A stretch of 64,000 bases of DNA from NCBI GenBank assembly GCA_964350795.1, contig CAYGLI010000003.1, positions 272 to 64,271 on the forward strand, in the 5' to 3' direction. The position numbers and the translations under genes are program-made. This document shows, one piece after another, positions 7,560-54,300 of this stretch. Under the pieces are notes generated by a model. That model saw only the letters and a list, made by a program, of their open reading frames with translations, made no database searches and was not told the origin of the DNA. Position 1 is the first letter of the stretch, and the number at the start of each line of letters is the position of its first letter. Source of the DNA: an uncultured Micavibrio sp. Lineage in GTDB: Bacteria > Pseudomonadota > Alphaproteobacteria > Micavibrionales > UBA1664.

Positions 7560-8107
7560 AACCCACTATCGGGTTGCGCTAAATATTCTTCTTCTAATTT
7601 TGTGTTTTGACGTTCCAAAATATCGTTACGGTGGGGAAAGCGACCGAATTTTTTAATCACATCATAGTGACGCTTGGCATAGGTATAATATGTCGGATCA
7701 TCATCCTGTGTTGGTTTGAATAACCGCAGGGATGTTTCTTGGTCGGCCATATCCTCGCTATGTTCAAATGGTAAATAGGCAAAAACCTTTTCATTCAGCG
7801 TCATCATTGTATCGAATTTTTTATCAATAACATGATTGGCGATATTCAATGCCTTATGGTCGCTGGCGAACATTTTTGGCGTATCGCGATACATATTGCG
7901 TGGAAATTGGTCGAGCAAGATAATAAGTGCCAAGCACCCTTTTGCGCTATCGATCCACCCATCGTAAATATCTTGCATCGCAAGGGTGTAATCCCCCTCA
8001 AAACGGGCGGCGATTTCATTATCAAAATCAGGATTTTTTTGAAACCACTGGGCGGGTTTTGTTTCCTCGAACCAGAATTTTAGAATTTCGGATTTGGCGT
8101 CTCTCAT
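7556..8107 (-). CDS. DUF924 family protein
   Basis: ILKFWFEE...WFQKNPDFDNEIAARF...LDQFPRNMYR is the DUF924 signature. The start is placed at the internal ATG 8107 to avoid overlapping cheR; the track ORF extends to 8155. Confidence 0.75.
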   Translation of the reverse strand: MRDAKSEILKFWFEETKPAQWFQKNPDFDNEIAARFEGDYTLAMQDIYDGWIDSAKGCLALIILLDQFPRNMYRDTPKMFASDHKALNIANHVIDKKFDTMMTLNEKVFAYLPFEHSEDMADQETSLRLFKPTQDDDPTYYTYAKRHYDVIKKFGRFPHRNDILERQNTKLEEEYLAQPDSGF

Positions 8108-19242: not shown

Positions 19243-19317
19243 GGGTTGTTAGCTCAGGGGTAGAGCACTTGCTCGACACGCAAGGGGTCACTGGTTCAAT
19301 CCCAGTACAACCCACCA
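19243..19317 (+). tRNA. tRNA-Val (anticodon GAC) with encoded CCA
   Basis: Hand-folded cloverleaf. Acceptor GGGTTGT/ACAACCC, D stem GCTC/GAGC, anticodon stem CTTGC/GCAAG with loop TCGACAC, T arm ACTGG-TTCAATC-CCAGT, discriminator A plus CCA. Position 33 reads C, not U. Confidence 0.8.
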
Positions 19318-25469: not shown

Positions 25470-25539
25470 AGCTCAGGGGTAGAGCACTTGCTCGACACGC
25501 AAGGGGTCACTGGTTCAATCCCAGTACAACCCACCATTT
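25470..25539 (+). repeat. attR (3' 70 nt of tRNA-Val, no 5' acceptor arm)
   Basis: Identical to 19251-19320. The preceding bases differ (A vs T), so it is not a second functional tRNA. Confidence 0.85.
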
Positions 25540-40084: not shown

Positions 40085-42274
40085 ATGGCAAATAAAGACA
40101 GACAACCTTTTGATAATTCGGTCGTGGAATGGGTGGATAGCCGCCTACCAATCTTTACGATGATACAAAAAGAATATGGTGTATTCCCAACACCGCGCAA
40201 TTTCAATTACTTTTGGAATTTCGGTGCCTTGGCCATGGTGTTTTTGGTTTTGATGATTTTGACTGGTGTGTTTTTGGCCATGAATTACACCGCGCATGCG
40301 GATATGGCGTTTAATTCGGTTGAGCGGATTATGCGTGATGTGAATTTGGGGTGGATGTTGCGTTACATGCATATGAACGGCGCGCATTTCTTTTTTGCCG
40401 TCGTTTACATCCACATATTCCGTGCCATGTATTACGGATCTTATAAAAAACCACGTGAATTACTTTATCTGTTAGGTGTTTTGATTTTCGTCCTGATGAT
40501 GGCGACGGCCTTTATGGGCTACACCTTGCCTTGGTCACAAATGTCAGGATGGGGGGCAACGGTTATTACATCCCTGTTCTCCGCCGTTCCGTTTGTTGGT
40601 GAGGCGTTGGTACAATTATTATGGGGAGGGTTCAGTGTTGATAATCCAACATTAAACCGTTTCTATGCCCTGCATTATTTATTTCCGTTTTTGATTGTGG
40701 GTGTGGTTGTGCTCCATGTTTGGGCATTGCACGTCACGGGGTCAAATAACCCATTGGGTGTTGAACCAAAAACAAAGCGTGATACATTGCCGTTCCACCC
40801 TTATTACACAATGAAGGATATGTTTGGTATTACCGTTGTGTTGGTATTGTTTGCGTTTGTTGTTTTCTTTGCGCCAAATTCATTGGGACATGCCGATCAT
40901 TATATCCCATTTGATCCATTGGTTACCCCACCACATATTGTGCCTGAATGGTACTTTCTGATGTTCTATGCCATTTTGCGTGCCATTACATTTGATTTTA
41001 ACATCTATGTCTTTGCGGGTATGGGGTTAATGGCTGTTGCCGTTGTACCGTTATATATGAACCGTGATAAGCAATTAAATGTTCCTCCAATTTTAGGAAT
41101 TGGTGCATTGGGTGGTATTTTATTCTTACTTGGTTTTGTCGCGCAAGACGCAGGTGGTAATTTGGTTAAACTGCCATTCACTGAATTCAAATTGATTTCT
41201 GCGAAATTGGGTGGTGTGTTGGCCATGTTTGGTGCGATTGTTGCGTTGGCCTTAATGCCATGGTTGGATTGGCACAAGGTTCGCTCTGCGCGTTTCCGCC
41301 CAATGTATAAATTTTTCCTTATATTATTTGTGATTAACGCAGTGATATTAGGCATTATGGGTGCCAAAGTTGCCGAGCAACCATGGGTGATTATTTCACA
41401 ATTGGCGACTGGATATTACTTTGCATTCTTCTTTGTGATTGTACCCTTGCTCTCACGCATTGAGGTTGCAAAACCATTACCACGTTCCATTTATGAAGAA
41501 GTGGTTAAGAAGGTTGCCGTTGTTGCACTTGTTATCGCCGTATCCTTTGGTGGATTAACATCAACCGCCAATGCCGCGGGCGATGCCCCAACACCGCCAT
41601 CACGCGAATGGTCGTTTGATGGTATGTTTGGAACATTCGATAAGGCCGAAAAACAGCGCGGATTTCAGGTTTATAAAGAGGTCTGCGCCGCATGTCACGG
41701 GATGAAGAAATTATCATACCGTAACCTGACCAGCCTTGGATATTCCGAAGATCAAGTTAAGGCCATCGCAATGGAATATGAAGTAACCGATGGACCAAAT
41801 GACGAGGGGGACATGTTTACACGCCCCGCCCGTGCATCCGACCGTTTCAAATCACCTTTTGAAAATTATCAGGCCGCACGATACGCCAATAATGGCGCAC
41901 TGCCTGTTGATTTATCCTTAATTGTGAAGGCACGTCATTATGGCGCGGATTATATCCATGCCTTACTAACGGGATATAAAGAAGCCCCAGAGGGCGTCGA
42001 GATGAATGCAGGTATGCATTATAATGAATATTTTGCTGGTAATCAAATTGCCATGTCTGCTCCATTAATCAATGATCAAATTCCATATGCTGATGGCACG
42101 CCCGCAACGGTGGAACAAATGGCACATGATGTTTCCGTATTTTTGGCATGGGCCGCAGAACCATCGCAGGATGAGCGCAAAAGGATTGGATGGAAGGTTC
42201 TTATCTTCCTAACATTCCTGTCCGTCATCATGTATCTGGTGAAGAAAAAAGTCTGGAAAGATGTTGAGAAATAA
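40085..42274 (+). CDS. fbcH: fused cytochrome b / cytochrome c1 precursor (fbcH-type)
   Basis: A single 729-aa frame. The cytochrome b part has [15 protein letters not shown] and related motifs. An internal signal-like segment ([26 protein letters not shown]) follows, then cytochrome c1 with CAACHGM and a C-terminal TM anchor. Confidence 0.88.
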
Positions 42275-44182: not shown

Positions 44183-44821
44183 ATGATTGATACTGCTAGA
44201 CTAAACTTACTAATTACATTCTTAGGTGGAATTTTTATTCTTATCGGAACCATTTTTTCAGAAAATATAAGTAACTATTTCTTCCCTCCTAATGAATTAA
44301 CCTATGAAGTTATTGCGCACAGCGAAATAGATGACCTAACAATATTAAACTTAAGTATTGTAAATGGTGGACAGAAAGTTCAAAAAGATGTTTCTATAGA
44401 AATTAGTAAGAGTACAAAAGCTCCAAACAGCAAGGGCTTAATAGCTTATGAAAGCAATAAAGATATTATTGCTAAAGAAGGCAAATCAAAATACATTTTC
44501 TCAATAGAAAACCTCAAAATTGATGAAAGATTAAACTTATCTTTAGTATTAAATGAACCATATTTATTTTATAATGAATATTATGGTGGATTGCGCGATG
44601 TTAAAATTATATCAGATGAAAATGTTGCTCAGCAGGTAACAAAAAACAGCTATTTTGAAGATATAAAAACAGCAATATTTTGGATTGCTTTAGTTGGTTT
44701 TATTCTTTTGATAATACTAGGATTCATTTTGGAATTTATTTTAACACCAGAGCAGAAAATTAAAATGTTAAAAGATAACATAAAAAATAATCAAGATAAG
44801 ATAAAAAAACTAAAGCCTTAA
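44183..44821 (+). CDS. hypothetical membrane protein (212 aa), very AT-rich
   Basis: N-terminal TM (LLITFLGGIFILIGTIF) and C-terminal TM (IFWIALVGFILLIILGFILEFIL) with a Lys-rich tail. No recognised family. Confidence 0.45.
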   Translation: MIDTARLNLLITFLGGIFILIGTIFSENISNYFFPPNELTYEVIAHSEIDDLTILNLSIVNGGQKVQKDVSIEISKSTKAPNSKGLIAYESNKDIIAKEGKSKYIFSIENLKIDERLNLSLVLNEPYLFYNEYYGGLRDVKIISDENVAQQVTKNSYFEDIKTAIFWIALVGFILLIILGFILEFILTPEQKIKMLKDNIKNNQDKIKKLKP

Positions 44822-44966: not shown

Positions 44967-45293
44967 CTAAACCACAATCCTTAAAATCATTTCACCTTCA
45001 CGGATAATGACGGTTTTGTGGGCGCGGCGCATCATGGGAATTCCGGCACCTCGGCAAAACATCATAAGGGCGGCAGCGATAAAGTCACGCGAGAACGTCA
45101 CCATTTTCTTTTCACCATCTTGGGGGTTTTCCAAAAAAATATTGATTTTATTCGCATCAAGACCGTCTTCCTCAATTTTTTTAATCATGCCAGCAATCAT
45201 TTTGGGGGCATTTTCTTGTTTGAGAGACAACTTATACAAGGCCTGATAGGTTTCGGTCATATCAAAAATGATGCGGCGGTCTTCACGGGGCAT
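44967..45293 (-). CDS. hypothetical protein (108 aa)
   Basis: Divergent from cheZ with no recognised motif. Confidence 0.4.
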   Translation of the reverse strand: MPREDRRIIFDMTETYQALYKLSLKQENAPKMIAGMIKKIEEDGLDANKINIFLENPQDGEKKMVTFSRDFIAAALMMFCRGAGIPMMRRAHKTVIIREGEMILRIVV

Positions 45294-45376: not shown

Positions 45377-45991
45377 ATGACACAAGCCCCCGTAAACAAT
45401 AATAATGATAATAAAATTGATGTTGATGAAAAATTGACAGCATTGGAAAAATTTATTGCGCGTCGTTTCGATGAAATTTCGATGGAAATTGAGGCGACAT
45501 CCCAATTAATGGAAATGGCAGAAGAGGACGCAGGCAAACGTTTCGTTGATATGTTGGGCATGTTAAACGCCATTTCATTTGCTGGTGATGGCACATCCCC
45601 CGCCAATTCAGGGAAAGAATTAGAATCCGTTGTCAAAGAAACAGAAAAGGCCGCGACAACCATCATGGATGCCGCTGATAATATTAAAAAAACGCTTGAG
45701 GCCAACGAGGACATGTTCGCCCATGATATGCATTCGGCATCAGTATCCGAATCAATCTTTAACGATATTCAAACCATAATCATGGCATGCGAATTTCAGG
45801 ATTTGGTATCACAACGCGTCACGACATCTGTTCGTAATATTCGTGATATTCAGGAAAAATTAGATGCCACCTTATCCAAATTTGGAATTGATACCAAATC
45901 CGCCAAGGACCCTATTAAAAACGAAACCTCTGCCGCTACATCATCCGAAGAAACAGCGTCACAAGGCGATATTGACGCGTTATTTGACTAA
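45377..45991 (+). CDS. cheZ: CheZ-like CheY-P phosphatase
   Basis: 204 aa. IIMACEFQDLVSQRVTTSVRNIRDIQEKL parallels E. coli CheZ [28 protein letters not shown]. The C-terminal ASQGDIDALFD resembles the CheY-binding tail ASQDQVDDLLDSLGF. Confidence 0.65.
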   Translation: MTQAPVNNNNDNKIDVDEKLTALEKFIARRFDEISMEIEATSQLMEMAEEDAGKRFVDMLGMLNAISFAGDGTSPANSGKELESVVKETEKAATTIMDAADNIKKTLEANEDMFAHDMHSASVSESIFNDIQTIIMACEFQDLVSQRVTTSVRNIRDIQEKLDATLSKFGIDTKSAKDPIKNETSAATSSEETASQGDIDALFD

Positions 45992-46058: not shown

Positions 46059-46658
46059 TTGAGTATGACAGCACTATCACAACAAATGCAGGGGAAAATG
46101 ACGCTTGTTTTAAATGACCTGCGCCATAAAACGTTGGCCCGCATGACCGAAAGAGGCGAGCGTATTAAAAACCGCCCTGCCGTTGATGACAGTTTCAAAC
46201 AAATTCAAAGCCACCAAGTGATGCAAAAGAACGATGACGGTGCAACAATCCTTGGCGCCGCCATCGGCATTCCAGGGTTAGAAGGCGTGGCGGAATCCGT
46301 CGCTGACGTAGCTATCGAGCTCTATGGTGATCGCAAGGCCACGTTTGCACGACCACAGGATGATGAAGAGCTATCCCCAAAACAAAAATTAAAAATCCGC
46401 GAAGAAAACCGAATGGATTTAGAGGTATTTCAAAATTTAGATGATAAATTAAATACCCTGAACACGTACATCGCACAGGGTTACAAATTGGGTTTGGATT
46501 GGAATGGTGAATTAATTCCATGGGAAGAAATTGATACGCCAAAACAAACCATGAAAATAACACCCGAGGAAGAATTGGGTTTAAGGGCGGATAATTTAAA
46601 TCATGCGCCTGCGATGAATTTAAACCGTGCACCAACATCCATGTCAATGCGTGCATAA
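46059..46658 (+). CDS. hypothetical protein (199 aa)
   Basis: Same strand as cheZ, 67 nt downstream. SD-like AAAGAGGA upstream, TTG (46059) or ATG (46065) start, no recognised motif. Confidence 0.45.
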   Translation: MSMTALSQQMQGKMTLVLNDLRHKTLARMTERGERIKNRPAVDDSFKQIQSHQVMQKNDDGATILGAAIGIPGLEGVAESVADVAIELYGDRKATFARPQDDEELSPKQKLKIREENRMDLEVFQNLDDKLNTLNTYIAQGYKLGLDWNGELIPWEEIDTPKQTMKITPEEELGLRADNLNHAPAMNLNRAPTSMSMRA

Positions 46659-46713
46659 TAACCATAGATTTTTTTGCACTAATCCTGCAAAATGGTAAGC
46701 AGGACATAAAATC

Positions 46714-47577
46714 ATGATGCTTCTTAATACATCCCTCCTTCGCGAGAGATTTACAATCACAGAAAAAAACTCAACCCAACAACCGATACAGGCGTTGGGA
46801 AATCGCATTTTATTGCCTCTAAAATCAACAAATGGTGAAATATCGGAACGATTTGTTATTCGTGCCCATTCCATGCATATGGCCCTCTCCATGGCCGCGG
46901 CAATTACAAATAATTTTTTTGAATATGGCCCCATCATTAACCGTATGGTTAAATTTCCATGGCGGGATATATGGTATGATATTTCGTCAGATTTCGAACG
47001 ACCTCATAATCCCGATACATGGATATCAATCTATCATAATGGACGACCAATCTATCAAGATGGCGCGCATCATCCATTTTTGGATATTGTTGAGCAATGC
47101 GACATTAAAAACCGTGAAGAATATGACCGTGCTATTCCATTGGCCGTGGATATTTTCAAACAAGCGGGCAAAGACGTTGAAATTCAACATGATGTCAATA
47201 TCGCCAGTGTGATAGGTGTGACAGAAGGCAAAACACGTTGTGGCCTTATTTTACGCTCCCCTACACGCACAACAACCTTTAATTTCACAATGCAAGTAAA
47301 CCCTGATAAAGAATTTCAACCCGCGCCTCATCATGGTTTAGAGTTAGCGGCATTATACCTTGAGGCAATTCAACTGGCCGTTTCCACTGGATTTGTAGAG
47401 AGAAAGTTAGAGGAAGGTCATTTACGCGAAACATCAAACGCGGCCAAAAAAGCCAAAGCGTCCTATCATCGTATCGGTCGATTGAATAAAGAAATAGAAG
47501 GGTTTGAAACAATGTATGACATTCGATATCGCCCCGAAAAACCCGATTTTGTCGCCTTAATGAAGGACGATAATTAA
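46714..47577 (+). CDS. hypothetical protein, tandem paralogue A (287 aa)
   Basis: Shares with the next gene SLLRE.FTI, ALGNR, IR.HSMHM, PDTWI, HH.F.DI.EQ, ILR.P, KEF and the C-terminal IRYRPEKPDF, in the same order and at the same length. Confidence 0.6.
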   Translation: MMLLNTSLLRERFTITEKNSTQQPIQALGNRILLPLKSTNGEISERFVIRAHSMHMALSMAAAITNNFFEYGPIINRMVKFPWRDIWYDISSDFERPHNPDTWISIYHNGRPIYQDGAHHPFLDIVEQCDIKNREEYDRAIPLAVDIFKQAGKDVEIQHDVNIASVIGVTEGKTRCGLILRSPTRTTTFNFTMQVNPDKEFQPAPHHGLELAALYLEAIQLAVSTGFVERKLEEGHLRETSNAAKKAKASYHRIGRLNKEIEGFETMYDIRYRPEKPDFVALMKDDN

Positions 47578-47579
47578 GC

Positions 47580-48440
47580 ATGGATAATATATCCCTCCTT
47601 CGTGAAAAATTCACTATTCGGGATTTAGGGATAGATTCAGGTGCCGTCATTGCACTTGGTAATCGTCTGCATATTGATCTGCCAAAACAAAAAACACCCC
47701 TCATCATTCGTGGTCATTCCATGCATATGACATTGCGATATGGTGCCGAAATTTTGAAACATTTATCCTATATCAGCCATGTCGAAGATATTAAGACCCT
47801 AATTGATTGGGAGGCGTTATGGGATAAATTAATTACACCCTTTGAAAAAGACAACGTGCCTGACACTTGGATTACACTTTATTATCAAGGTAAAATTATT
47901 TTTCAATCTGGGCGTCATCATATGTTTTTTGATATCATTGAGCAGACAGAATTTAAAAATATTGGGACGTCACAACAATACGATAAATCAATTGTTATGG
48001 CACAAAATGCCTTTCGCCAAATGGGACGCAGCGTGATGATTGAACAAGAATCACATGTTGGATTTGTGTTGGACGTCGACCCAAAGGAAATGCGATTTGC
48101 CATTATTTTGCGAACCCCCGAACAAAAGGCAACATTTATTGTCAGGATGTCTGATAACAAAGAATTTAAAATCAAACCTTATGATTACGTATGCATGCAA
48201 TTGGCGGCTGACTATATCGAGGGCATTAATATGGCGGTGAGATCAGGATTCATGGATCGGGACATCGCCTCAAATGTTATTTCACAATATTCCGAAGGGA
48301 TGAAATTATATCGCAAAATCCAAAAACGATTGAAATCAATGGAAATTGGTGTAGGTCAGGCAGAACGAAAATATACCATCAGATACCGTCCCGAAAAACC
48401 TGATTTCACGGTTATTCAAAAAGAATGCTCGGACAATTGA
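47580..48440 (+). CDS. hypothetical protein, tandem paralogue B (286 aa)
   Basis: Starts 2 nt after paralogue A and is colinear with it over its full length. Confidence 0.6.
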   Translation: MDNISLLREKFTIRDLGIDSGAVIALGNRLHIDLPKQKTPLIIRGHSMHMTLRYGAEILKHLSYISHVEDIKTLIDWEALWDKLITPFEKDNVPDTWITLYYQGKIIFQSGRHHMFFDIIEQTEFKNIGTSQQYDKSIVMAQNAFRQMGRSVMIEQESHVGFVLDVDPKEMRFAIILRTPEQKATFIVRMSDNKEFKIKPYDYVCMQLAADYIEGINMAVRSGFMDRDIASNVISQYSEGMKLYRKIQKRLKSMEIGVGQAERKYTIRYRPEKPDFTVIQKECSDN

Positions 48441-48485: not shown

Positions 48486-48854
48486 ATGAAAAAAGCATTT
48501 TTACTTGCATCTTTATTCTGTATAACTTCTCCAACACATGTATCGTCTGCAACGGTATTATTTGGCGAGCGTTTGACTCCAACAATATCGGCACCAAACA
48601 CTAATAGCTTACATCAATACAGACCGCCTAAAAGAGATTTTATTGAGGCATGTCATATAGACAACAGAGAGATTTTTTATTTGCTACAATCAATACTCTC
48701 TTCAAAAAGTCAAACTAACCTTAGCGGTTGGTGCTTTGACGAGTATAGAAAAAAGATCACAGATGAAATATGTCCATATAGCGCCGTAAATAGCACACCC
48801 ACTTGTGATCTCTTAAGACAACGAATTTCAGGCGATAAGCCTAAATTCTATTAA
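48486..48854 (+). CDS. hypothetical secreted Cys-containing protein (122 aa)
   Basis: Signal peptide (MKKAFLLASLFCITSPTHVSSA) and several Cys in the mature part. AT-rich. Confidence 0.45.
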   Translation: MKKAFLLASLFCITSPTHVSSATVLFGERLTPTISAPNTNSLHQYRPPKRDFIEACHIDNREIFYLLQSILSSKSQTNLSGWCFDEYRKKITDEICPYSAVNSTPTCDLLRQRISGDKPKFY

Positions 48855-48970: not shown

Positions 48971-49474
48971 ATGGATAAATTAAAATCAGCCATTGTCGGG
49001 GCTTTGATGATTGGAACGGCATCAAATGCATTTGCAGACACTGTAAATCCAGACAATCCGTATGCTTATATTCCAGAGGAATTAGCAGAATTGCTAAATC
49101 AACTTCCCCCAGAAATCGCGATGGAAACCTATAACCACCTAACCGAATACACGCAATGTATCGAAAAAGGTGGTGCGGTTGACGCCGGTTCAACCGCAAT
49201 GAATATGATGAACATTATGGTAGAATATAGCTTAAATCAACTTAATGATTTTGTTAACTCTCCTGATGAATTCGAAACTATACCCATGCCATCTTATGAA
49301 GGAGCGGTGGTTTGTGCAAGCCAATATGAGGCATGGGGATTGTTAAATGGTGGCCGATTGGCCAACGCATTTTGTGATGAAACAGGACAAAGAATTTTAA
49401 ATTTCAGCCGTCCACTTGATGCGGATATCGGACTTCCCGCAAGACAAGCAGCACCGACTTGTAATGCATTATAG
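48971..49474 (+). CDS. hypothetical secreted protein (167 aa)
   Basis: Signal peptide (...GTASNAFA/D), four Cys, SD-like AAGGAAA upstream. Confidence 0.5.
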   Translation: MDKLKSAIVGALMIGTASNAFADTVNPDNPYAYIPEELAELLNQLPPEIAMETYNHLTEYTQCIEKGGAVDAGSTAMNMMNIMVEYSLNQLNDFVNSPDEFETIPMPSYEGAVVCASQYEAWGLLNGGRLANAFCDETGQRILNFSRPLDADIGLPARQAAPTCNAL

Positions 49475-49544: not shown

Positions 49545-50006
49545 ATGAAAAAATTATTAACAGCTACTGCCTTAGTAACTGCAGGCATGACGTCAAGCGC
49601 ATTTGCGGAAACTTGCTACCCAACAGCTGATATTCAATTTACAAATGATGAGGGTGTTAACACCACTGTTTATGCAATTGTAGATGAGCCAATCAATTTT
49701 GAAAGAGAAAGATCAACTGGGATATATATTCATCCAGAAGATGCCAAAAATAACGCAATAGCCAAAACAGGAAGAAATTTATCTATTAACGCTATGGTAG
49801 CCGTTGTAGTAAATGATAGATTGAGAGATCAGTTTGGTAGTGAAGCGGGTCCTGGTTTAACATCACACCTTGTTGCGCCAGCTACACTGTGCGTTTCTGA
49901 AGATGTAGTGAAAGGCCTTGAAAAAGACGCAAGTCCTGTTCATGATACTGGCATTAAATATCAAGGCGATGAATCAAAAGTTAGTGTTTGGGCTTTGAAA
50001 AAATAA
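49545..50006 (+). CDS. hypothetical secreted protein (153 aa)
   Basis: Signal peptide (...GMTSSAFA/E) and a strong SD (GAGGAG). Confidence 0.5.
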   Translation: MKKLLTATALVTAGMTSSAFAETCYPTADIQFTNDEGVNTTVYAIVDEPINFERERSTGIYIHPEDAKNNAIAKTGRNLSINAMVAVVVNDRLRDQFGSEAGPGLTSHLVAPATLCVSEDVVKGLEKDASPVHDTGIKYQGDESKVSVWALKK

Positions 50007-52828: not shown

Positions 52829-53623
52829 GTGCAAGAAACCATAAGCAATCCTATTGAAGATATTAACACAAAAGACTTTATTTGGGTTGTTCGTGCGATA
52901 TACGAAGGATATGATGAAAACGACGAACATGCAGAATTAGTTCAAGAGCTACATGGTGCTTTTATTAATCAAGTTCGAGGCAATTACGGCGCTTATCTAG
53001 AACAAGCACTGCTTGCATACGATAATCCGGAAGAAGTAGACACCTCAGACATATCAACAGATTTTTTTAGTGAAATGTTACGTGATTTTTCACATGCAAG
53101 AATGATATCTCTTGCAAAATTATATGCTTGCCTTGTTCAAATCGAAGATCATTATGAGTTAGCCGACGAAAATGGAGTTAAACCTTCTCAACTTCTGAAA
53201 AAAGAACTTGATAGCTGCCTGAAAGGAACAAGAGAACAACTCATCTCTAATTGTACAACAAAAGAAAGATTCTCTCACGTTAGTGGAACTATAGACGGGA
53301 TTCCAACATGGGCCGTTATCAAGGATGTTAAGTATATTATTGAAAAACCAGAATCGATTGGTAACCCAATGGTCTCCCCCCTCTTTTTTATTCCAGAATT
53401 TTTTAAAGACGCGATAACACTTATTAAACATGAAATTGCCTTTTGTACCGCCGCCACGGATATTTTTGGATTATCCGACGAATTAAAAAGTGAACTTTTT
53501 GAAAATTCCGATTACCACAACGACCTATTAGAGGATATAGATTTAGCGTTTGAAAAATTTAATCAAGATCCAAAAGTTCAAAGATATTCACCTAAAAAAC
53601 CTGTTGGTATGGTTATTCACTAA
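52829..53623 (+). CDS. hypothetical acidic protein (264 aa)
   Basis: GTG start after GAGGGAGAG. No recognised motif. AT-rich. Confidence 0.4.
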   Translation: MQETISNPIEDINTKDFIWVVRAIYEGYDENDEHAELVQELHGAFINQVRGNYGAYLEQALLAYDNPEEVDTSDISTDFFSEMLRDFSHARMISLAKLYACLVQIEDHYELADENGVKPSQLLKKELDSCLKGTREQLISNCTTKERFSHVSGTIDGIPTWAVIKDVKYIIEKPESIGNPMVSPLFFIPEFFKDAITLIKHEIAFCTAATDIFGLSDELKSELFENSDYHNDLLEDIDLAFEKFNQDPKVQRYSPKKPVGMVIH

Positions 53624-54300
53624 CGACACAACGCCGCGACGCGTTCATATTCCTCTAATGTATCAACACCTTGTTGATTGGCGGATCGTTCGGCATAGAG
53701 TTTATCGCTTACGGCCTTTAGCTGTTTTTCCATGTAATCATTGATTTTTTGTTGATATTTGCGCGCATCCCTCTCTGGTTTTGGTCCAACAATGCCAACT
53801 TTACGCACGGCATTTTCCAAATCACGTTTAAAAATCGGGATGTATTTTTTAACAATTTCACGATCAACAAACACATGTTTCATTTCATGTTCCAAAATGG
53901 CTTTATGCTTACACGACCCCTGCCTATGATCCCGCGCGATATAGATTTTAGGGGAAATGCGCAACGATACCTGCATATTATCAATCCATTGGCATGTTTC
54001 ACGAGACCGCGGATAGGTGACCTTGGCAACCTGAATGCGGGATTGAATGGCAATCCCCCCCTTCATCAATCCACCGACATGCGTTTCAACATTGCGCCCA
54101 TATGGGTTTTCGGTATCAATTTCCATGCGGTTCATTTGTGATTGGGATTTGGTGAAATCATATTGGATATTATCGCTGTCCCATACAATATTAATTGCCC
54201 CCATTGGTTTGGGTTCACACGTCACCGCCGCATAAGACGGCGCGTGTATCAACATCGCGAGAATAAAAAAGAAAAATGAGAAACGAAACATACTTTGCAA
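53620..54300 (-). CDS. putative secreted zinc metallopeptidase (HExxH; DUF922/COG5661-like)
   Basis: Signal peptide (FFFFILAMLIHAPSYAA) and an HEMKH motif in ILEHEMKHVF. The size and layout resemble predicted secreted Zn proteases. Confidence 0.35.
   Translation of the reverse strand: MQSMFRFSFFFFILAMLIHAPSYAAVTCEPKPMGAINIVWDSDNIQYDFTKSQSQMNRMEIDTENPYGRNVETHVGGLMKGGIAIQSRIQVAKVTYPRSRETCQWIDNMQVSLRISPKIYIARDHRQGSCKHKAILEHEMKHVFVDREIVKKYIPIFKRDLENAVRKVGIVGPKPERDARKYQQKINDYMEKQLKAVSDKLYAERSANQQGVDTLEEYERVAALCR

Follow-up and report, generated by a model that had tools for sequence, protein, structure and literature searches.

In Escherichia coli, the CheY-P phosphatase CheZ carries its catalytic residues, D143 and Q147, on a long helix; to our knowledge, the partners of CheZ outside the Enterobacteria are poorly known. 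Here we describe three genes, o199, parA, and parB, that follow a cheZ-family gene in a 64,000-nucleotide stretch of DNA from an uncultured Micavibrio sp. (contig CAYGLI010000003.1; the whole stretch is called the window). Micavibrio-type bacteria are obligate predators studied as living antibiotics, and their lineage-specific genes are almost uncharacterized. parA and parB belong to an orphan protein family (FAM) that is confined to Micavibrio-type alphaproteobacteria (Micavibrionales in GTDB), most of them predatory. With moderate confidence, we read the locus as a vertically inherited two-gene module specific to the Micavibrionales, whose products would be cytoplasmic and whose large subunit would resemble an enzyme or a ligand binder. 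A literature search found no paper on FAM, and the genome and transcriptome study of M. aeruginosavorus ARL-13 (Wang et al. 2011, PMC3189940) alone was useful.

A first-pass annotation, made from the sequence alone, had described three same-strand genes behind cheZ. The open reading frame (ORF) table bears out this order, with gaps of 67 nt (cheZ to o199), 55 nt (o199 to parA), and 2 nt (parA to parB). The genes of the cluster are:

44967-45293, minus strand: o108, a 108-aa orphan, divergent from cheZ
45377-45991, plus strand: cheZ-family gene, 204 aa (ORF table)
46059-46658, plus strand: o199; the ORF opens at TTG 46059 and encodes 199 aa, or 197 aa from ATG 46065
46714-47577, plus strand: parA, 287 aa, the FAM orthologue
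47580-48440, plus strand: parB, 286 aa, the divergent tandem FAM copy

o199, parA, and parB are real genes, since their orthologues in other genomes are conserved at the protein level. The ORF positions first given for them stand, but the start of the 199-aa gene likely needs correction. Its true start is most likely ATG 46065, giving 197 aa. The 197-aa product is an exact match on the public record, the orthologues begin with MTALS or MSTLS, and a Shine-Dalgarno-like AAGAGGA precedes this codon. As first described, a hydropathy scan of the three proteins found neither a transmembrane-like segment nor a signal-peptide-like N-terminus. The highest 19-residue Kyte-Doolittle means were 1.35, 1.28, and 0.86 for o199, parA, and parB, respectively.

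FAM is an orphan family of the Micavibrionales

A word-seeded search of a 5.8-billion-protein set returned 272 FAM relatives, which carry no Pfam domain and are all unnamed or labeled 'hypothetical'. When 1.84 billion cluster representatives were searched exhaustively with a profile, only 259 were recovered at E up to 0.001, nearly all 280-340 aa long with one matched stretch each. Because a single stretch was matched in nearly all representatives, FAM offers no informative domain fusions.

Scanning one genome per GTDB species gave 172 relatives. The 80 genome matches that were listed are all labeled Micavibrio, Alphaproteobacteria, Rhodospirillales, or Pseudobdellovibrionaceae/Bdellovibrionales, and they include the cultured M. 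aeruginosavorus HCB189. The Rhodospirillales and Pseudobdellovibrionaceae/Bdellovibrionales labels arise because NCBI taxonomy files Micavibrio there. No FAM relatives were found on viral contigs or plasmids.

Searches of Pfam-A, NCBIfam, PHROG, and PADLOC gave no match for o199, parA, or parB (best E not below 0.04, all far under the cut-offs), in agreement with the first impression that none holds a recognizable domain. A Pfam scan of 36 diverse FAM members found no family common to more than three and no recurrent weak family, and the FAM sequence profile met only chance matches among PDB chains. Neither FAM nor o199 was placed in a characterized family by the profile and fold searches run, and in that sense FAM is categorically new. 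It is also one of many lineage-restricted orphan families.

Tandem duplication of FAM

parA and parB can be aligned over their full lengths (BLASTP E 2e-60, with 34% identity and 55% positives), close to the one-third identity first judged by eye. Every motif originally listed for the pair is present (SLLRE[RK]FTI, ALGNR, IR[AG]HSMHM, PDTWI[ST], HH.F.DI[VI]EQ, [LI]ILR[ST]P, KEF, and RYRPEKPDF), and most fall on family-wide invariant columns. The pair had been taken to represent a conserved duplicated family. FAM is indeed conserved, but its duplication is local. Of the 82 loci that we fetched, 75 have one FAM gene, and the tandem pair occurs only in the window and in seven of the 82 (L001 and L003-L008).

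In a midpoint-rooted neighbor-joining tree of FAM, parA falls among the single-copy genes, and the parB sequences make up a separate clade on a long branch. We defined near-invariant positions as those at least 90% conserved in single-copy FAM, which gave 59. Seventeen are changed in the parB clade and six in the parA clade, while both clades keep the core invariant residues. By these comparisons, parA is the orthologue of the order-wide FAM gene and parB a divergent copy.

The parB start lies 2 nt behind the parA stop in the window, and in relatives the two genes range from overlapping to 6 nt apart. This spacing implies translational coupling. It would fit, without proving, a hetero-oligomer of parA and parB.

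Predicted structure and conserved residues

AlphaFold2 (AF2) modeled parA as a single domain with a pLDDT of 92.8 and a pTM of 0.91, using a 36-sequence alignment. The predicted fold is compact and alpha+beta, with two long helices packed on a large sheet. Its elements are, in order:

4-51: three-strand meander, followed by helices
104-116: hairpin, followed by two helices
155-195: second three-strand meander
207-267: two long helices
268-273: final strand

Foldseek found nothing significant for this model in the PDB (best E 0.026, TM-score at most 0.18), and the best match in BFVD had an E of 0.009 and a TM-score of 0.14. The N-terminal and C-terminal halves of FAM match each other with an hhalign E of 0.026, a hint that they may stem from an ancient internal duplication.

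Twenty-four columns are invariant among 36 diverse FAM sequences. These are N30, R31, R50, M54, H55, W103, Y107, G110, G117, H120, E127, N133, Y137, A144, F148, I157, R181, T188, F189, E217, E265, R273, P274, and P277. The near-invariant columns include R10, E11, D124, C129, and D130. The majority of the invariant residues have polar or charged side chains; several are Arg or Glu, two are His, and two are Asn. They occur across the beta-strands and where two helices begin, and the motifs MH and HHPFLDIIEQCD are among them. Conservation of such Arg, His, Asp, Glu, Asn, and Tyr residues in a soluble protein is suggestive of a site that is catalytic or that binds a metal or an anionic ligand.

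The same residues could instead be protein contacts if FAM were a non-enzymatic structural or scaffold protein of the predator cell (e.g. a cell-cycle or polarity factor), with the small upstream protein as its labile, proteolytically controlled partner. The predicted packing of two long helices (residues 207-267) on a large sheet would suit such a protein, as would the limitation of FAM to a single lineage whose life cycle is peculiar. However, when His, Glu, Asp, Asn, and Arg are invariant across the core strands, they more typically form catalytic or ligand sites than interfaces, and FAM has no coiled-coil or repeat architecture. We consider a scaffold role unlikely.

FAM lies in a conserved housekeeping block

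The 82 loci were compared by tblastn, ORF clustering, and hidden Markov model (HMM) searches, with denominators that vary with the available sequence. A convergent acnA gene lies within 6 kb downstream of FAM in 51 of the 58 loci with enough sequence. Recurrent neighbors are lepA, yggT, folD, icd, and a gene for a 226-aa protein that looks secreted. The recurrence of acnA, lepA, yggT, folD, and icd marks the region as a housekeeping synteny block. In the window, the cluster sits between a group made up of hemF, trmL, petABC, and lepA and a second group made up of acnA, folD, and icd. The housekeeping genes of the window, including a fused cytochrome b/c1 gene, are alphaproteobacterial.

Earlier, the three genes had alternatively been seen as an unrelated accessory, effector-like cassette that landed here, which would mean horizontal acquisition and insertion beside cheZ. 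Some local features would suit this account. The stretch at 44.2-50.0 kb has a lower G+C content (31-43%) than its flanks (42-49%), a 212-aa gene within it has a weak match in only one locus, and genes for 122, 167, and 153 aa have no counterpart in any of the 82 loci. Yet FAM, o108, and cheZ hold the same slot between lepA and acnA in dozens of species, and this synteny refutes the cassette account, which we regard as barely tenable. FAM is single-copy across the order, and divergence keeps step with that of the housekeeping genes nearby. FAM has no relatives on viral contigs or plasmids, and o199, parA, and parB have no signal peptide. The look of recent addition is limited to the small ORFs that flank the cluster.

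Linkage to cheZ

The gene upstream of o199 had been called cheZ. In the window genome its product falls below the Pfam threshold for CheZ (PF04344; E 2.7e-5 and 24.6 bits, with a gathering score of 30.7), but the orthologue in locus L058 passes it at 32.7 bits. Most homologues of the window protein bear a precomputed PF04344, and some are named 'protein phosphatase CheZ' by NCBI. Residues 140-146 of the window protein read FQDLVSQ, which contains the catalytic Asp-x3-Gln pattern. Of 26 CheZ family members, 25 carry FQD[LI]xxQ, and nearly all keep the C-terminus ...SQ(D/G)DIDALF (QDDIDALF). Since an orthologue passes Pfam, homologues carry PF04344, and both the motif and the C-terminus are conserved, we take 45377-45991 to be a genuine CheZ-family gene.

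In BLASTP, the window protein aligns locally across the FQD motif to E. coli CheZ, IMMAQDFQDLTGQ. Its C-terminus resembles the CheY-binding tail of the E. coli protein, ...QDQVDDLLDSLGF, a likeness of sequence alone. A phmmer search of the PDB with the window protein returned no match.

A same-strand cheZ precedes FAM in 22 of 75 loci (29%), and in 57 of 82 the gene is absent within 8 kb on either side. o108 is divergent upstream of FAM in 22 of 67. Where cheZ is present, the order is nearly always o108 on the minus strand, then cheZ, a small protein (SP, described below), and FAM on the plus strand. Since this four-gene arrangement is seen in several separate subclades of the FAM neighbor-joining tree, it is probably ancestral. 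One subclade instead carries SIMPL-SodCu-(DUF455, homocysteine S-methyltransferase)-FAM-acnA.

L001 is the closest relative of the window (parA 77% identical) and has o108-o199-parA-parB without cheZ. A 202-aa gene of L001 was considered as a displaced cheZ and ruled out, as it has no similarity. A six-frame HMM search found no cheZ remnant in loci lacking the gene.

Recurrence of this gene order, in several subclades and probably from the ancestor, is one reason to consider the signaling or motility accessory module that was first suggested. FAM and the small protein would then work with CheZ and be co-transcribed with it, for example to place or regulate the CheY-P phosphatase at the flagellated pole. 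Gaps are short, typically 58-260 nt between cheZ and SP and 26-200 nt between SP and FAM, and the cheZ gene looks functional by its conserved motif and C-terminus. The window has no plus-strand terminator-like site between cheZ and parB, although the promoter and terminator scan of 44.1-50.1 kb gave counts no higher than shuffled sequence and, with no plus-strand terminator found, is uninformative on operon structure.

Against a chemotaxis role, no cheZ lies near FAM in 71% of loci, L001 and the cultured M. aeruginosavorus among them. Where the cluster has broken up, SP and o108 tend to remain by FAM while cheZ leaves (e.g. L018 and L038). Adjacency to cheZ is also weak evidence because gene order is conserved throughout this housekeeping region. 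The window cheZ is not located in a che operon, and no other che or fla genes were found among the genes scanned about 10 kb to either side. Thus the cheZ linkage that was first proposed holds as a recurrent gene order, but its functional tie to chemotaxis is weak, and we doubt that FAM and its neighbor work with CheZ.

Upstream of cheZ, the CtrA box TTAA-N7-TTAA was absent in 11 intergenic regions. A CtrA-type half-site, TTAACCAT, was seen ahead of cheZ in one subclade only, where five loci have it at a distance of 16-156 nt (L042:6745, L047:6833, L049:6778, L052:6778, and L057:6798), against a background of 48 sites in 1.15 Mb. These counts are not independent because the five loci are closely related. 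The half-site was not found at the window cheZ, which has only GTTAAC at about 45340.

The small upstream protein and o108

In 44 of 78 loci, the gene immediately before FAM, in the same orientation, encodes a small protein; the median gap is about 60 nt. Of these 44 proteins, 38 belong to one fast-evolving family of 80-190 aa (SP), with the core pattern D.mLG...G.aF ... EY..DR ... lG...i..FN; examples are L058:7489-7971 and L047:7619-7939 (among loci L010-L082). The SP subfamilies are linked to one another by hhalign probabilities of 79-96%, and jackhmmer recovers SP in the 38 loci. The other six loci hold the o199 type and are exactly those with both a tandem FAM pair and upstream sequence. 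Orthologues of o199 were found only there.

o199 fills the SP slot on the same strand and appears together with the FAM duplication. jackhmmer did not recruit it. In hhalign, o199 matches SP profiles at E 0.016-0.06. Against the all-SP profile it scores 19.5, compared with 10.0 +/- 1.8 (maximum 15.0) for 60 column-shuffled controls and 12.6 for a reversed control. Motifs align in the same order in both: D.G..LG.A..G, a.D....Y.DR, and further on a ...N... segment. We consider o199 a probable, very diverged SP member, with homology that is not proven since the nominal hhalign E is only 0.016.

Many SP proteins end in -AA (...LAA, ...FAA, or ...IAA), including about 14 of 25 in the main subfamily and 2 of 6 in a second. 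A C-terminal -AA resembles ClpXP degradation signals of alphaproteobacteria. By this analogy, the ends may mark SP proteins as proteolytically controlled, as the labile partner of a scaffold would be.

A small gene closely followed by a larger one, with the small protein evolving much faster (36-48% identity for o199 orthologues versus 47-77% for parA in the same genomes) and often ending in -AA, also recalls a domesticated toxin-antitoxin-like or enzyme-inhibitor pair in which the upstream product neutralizes the larger, conserved one. FAM behaves differently from such systems. It is single-copy, syntenic, and vertically inherited across the order rather than patchy, multi-copy, or island-borne, and no toxin or antitoxin match was found in PADLOC, Pfam, or PHROG, nor any viral or plasmid relative. 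Moreover, 34 of 78 FAM loci have no recognizable small gene beside FAM. A neutralizing pair is thus improbable.

The third orphan of the cluster, o108, is strongly conserved, with the motifs MPxEDRRIIF and DFxAAALMxFCRGxGIPLP, and stays near FAM even where cheZ is absent. Its 74 homologue clusters, none named or with a Pfam domain, were found only in these metagenome-assembled genomes. The AF2 model (pLDDT 91.0) has a predicted beta-alpha-beta3-alpha-beta2 order. It has no Foldseek neighbor in the PDB, and the protein has no match in Pfam, NCBIfam, PHROGs, or PADLOC. A relationship of o108 to FAM was rejected, as the hhalign E of 0.029 covers only 32 columns.

Expression in M. aeruginosavorus ARL-13

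Wang et al. (2011, PMC3189940) give a gene expression index (GEI) for each ARL-13 ORF in the attack and attachment phases. We assigned the ARL-13 genes of the FAM locus by gene order and length against locus L028 of HCB189, whose lengths of 558, 972, and 1140 nt are identical if the ATG at 8001 is taken as the FAM start. GEI values for attack/attachment (PMC3189940) are:

GMV_1798, 324 nt, o108: 0.5/2.4
GMV_1800, 558 nt, SP: 9.3/14.3
GMV_1801, 972 nt, FAM: 0.5/3.4
GMV_1802, 1140 nt, 5'-nucleotidase: 0/1.9
GMV_1807, acnA: 0.6/18.7

Motility genes run in the opposite direction, with attack/attachment values of 10.1/1.3 and 30.9/1.1 for cheY, 7.2/0.3 for cheA, 6.4/0.6 for cheW, 28.9/7.1 for fliG, and 632.7/191.7 for flagellin (PMC3189940). 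The che operon spans 4.3-30.9 in attack and 0.3-1.3 in attachment (PMC3189940 Additional file 4), and the chemotaxis and flagellar classes are stated to be switched off in the attachment phase (PMC3189940). Because FAM rises from attack to attachment while che and flagellar values fall, the presumed FAM orthologue is not co-regulated with motility genes in ARL-13, as judged from one data set with low values. This is a further point against a chemotaxis role, with the caveat that the FAM locus of M. aeruginosavorus has no cheZ.

In the ARL-13 che operon, a 582-nt gene for a 'putative uncharacterized protein', GMV_2032, lies between cheA and cheY (PMC3189940). It is induced in the attack phase, with a GEI of 11.8 in attack and 0.3 in attachment (PMC3189940 Additional file 4). 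Its size and position would fit a cheZ that moved into the che operon in a genome whose FAM locus lacks cheZ.

Two of these comparisons favor the other alternatives. The higher expression of the presumed FAM orthologue in the growth (attachment) phase counts toward a scaffold role, and the expression of SP above FAM counts toward a neutralizing pair.

A model for the locus

We favor the two-gene module named at the outset, in which a gene for a small, very fast-evolving protein is followed on the same strand by one for a soluble FAM protein of 280-320 aa. FAM would be a cytoplasmic enzyme or a binder of a small ligand or metal. The small protein would regulate it, partner it, or serve as its substrate. 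In the window subclade, FAM was duplicated, with parA kept as the orthologue and parB diverging while retaining the core residues. The two might then act as a hetero-oligomer together with the remodeled small protein. The cheZ neighborhood is probably left over from a shared transcription unit of the ancestor and not a sign of strict functional dependence.

Several points weigh against this model. The enzyme-like character of FAM comes solely from the pattern of invariant polar residues. We infer, rather than observe, its activity or ligand and the partnership of the small protein, and the parA/parB hetero-oligomer is an idea drawn from gene spacing. The match that joins o199 to SP is weak, with the shuffle control as its sole support. 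Pairing of SP with FAM is also not universal at the locus, given the 34 of 78 loci without a recognizable small protein directly upstream.

A bolder version would make FAM, SP, and o108 unrecognized parts of CheZ/CheY-P signaling or of the switch from motile to attached life, with folds lacking a solved relative and FAM as a new enzyme or phospho-ligand sensor. We hold this to be as doubtful as the chemotaxis role above. If it were true, with FAM acting as an enzyme or sensor in connection with CheZ or the attack/attachment switch, the family would be a new part for motility control or predation biology. If not, FAM is still a clean target for structural genomics, being small and soluble and having an orthologue in cultured M. 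aeruginosavorus.

The locus combines three order-restricted families (o108, SP/o199, and FAM) in a fixed chromosomal place, often in line with the gene for the CheY-P phosphatase. Two of the three, FAM and o108, have confident models with no neighbor among solved structures. Present practical value is modest because function is not shown.

Other genes of the window

Features outside the cluster are:

19243-19314: full tRNA
25470-25525, plus strand: partial tRNA match, weak (37.8 bits, model positions 9-63 of 71)
40085-42274, plus strand: fused cytochrome b/c1, a 729-aa ORF after the Rieske gene
44183-44821, plus strand: 212-aa protein, directly after lepA in the stretch of lowest G+C content (31-33%)
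48486-48854, 48971-49474, and 49545-50006, plus strand: three small ORFs between parB and acnA (122, 167, and 153 aa)
53620-54300, minus strand: 226-aa protein with a hydrophobic N-terminus and a HEMKH (HExxH-like) motif, no Pfam match

The cytochrome b/c1 fusion is also present in L001 (Pfam Cytochrome_B and Cytochrom_C1). The 212-aa protein has a hydrophobic N-terminus and a strong C-terminal transmembrane segment (19-residue hydropathy 3.09). Its weak relative occurs in 1 of 82 loci, and other genes hold its slot in relatives, such as Fic and OsmC in L001. The 122-, 167-, and 153-aa ORFs have signal-peptide-like N-termini (e.g. MKKLLTATALVTAGMTSSAFA), a G+C content of 32-41%, and no Pfam match; they look like recent lineage-specific secreted proteins.

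The 226-aa protein is encoded downstream of acnA in 39 of 82 loci, with two or three tandem copies in L017, L029, and L032, and may be a small secreted metalloprotease-like protein. In L001, acnA is called as about eight short fragments (L001:12039-14516, minus strand) and lepA as two (L001:4605-6409), which points to frameshift errors of long-read assembly rather than pseudogenes.

Comparison with known systems

TldD/PmbA (TldE) proteins, which are mixed alpha+beta with long antiparallel sheets, account for five of the ten best PDB hits of the parA model, including ranks 1-5 (3qtd, 5njf, 1vl4, 5njc, and 3tv9). However, these matches have an E of 0.026-0.25, a probability of at most 0.30, a TM-score of at most 0.18, and a root-mean-square deviation of about 21-22 A. 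FAM also has no HExxxH motif, and parA has 287 aa versus 430-480 aa in TldD/PmbA. On these values the match is not meaningful.

CheC, CheX, and FliY are phosphatases and pseudo-symmetric alpha+beta proteins of chemotaxis. FAM resembles them as a soluble alpha+beta protein with two similar beta-meander-plus-helix halves (hhalign E 0.026 between the halves of FAM), and it sometimes lies beside a chemotaxis gene. Their signature motif, D/S-x3-E-x2-N-x22-P, is absent from FAM. The expression [DS]...E..N.{20,24}P matched 0 of 91 FAM sequences, which also counts against a chemotaxis role. No CheC or CheX structure is among the 50 Foldseek PDB hits listed for parA, and Pfam gave no match to these families.

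Type II toxin-antitoxin systems share the arrangement of a fast-evolving small gene close upstream of a larger, better-conserved one. They differ in that FAM has no toxin, antitoxin, or defense profile match and no mobile association, and is a core, single-copy, syntenic gene.

With CheZ itself, o199, parA, and parB share no detectable similarity. The likeness to CheZ (PF04344) lies in the neighboring gene, whose product has the FQDLxxQ motif of the catalytic helix and ends in QGDIDALFD, an acidic and amphipathic C-terminus similar to the CheY-binding peptide of CheZ.

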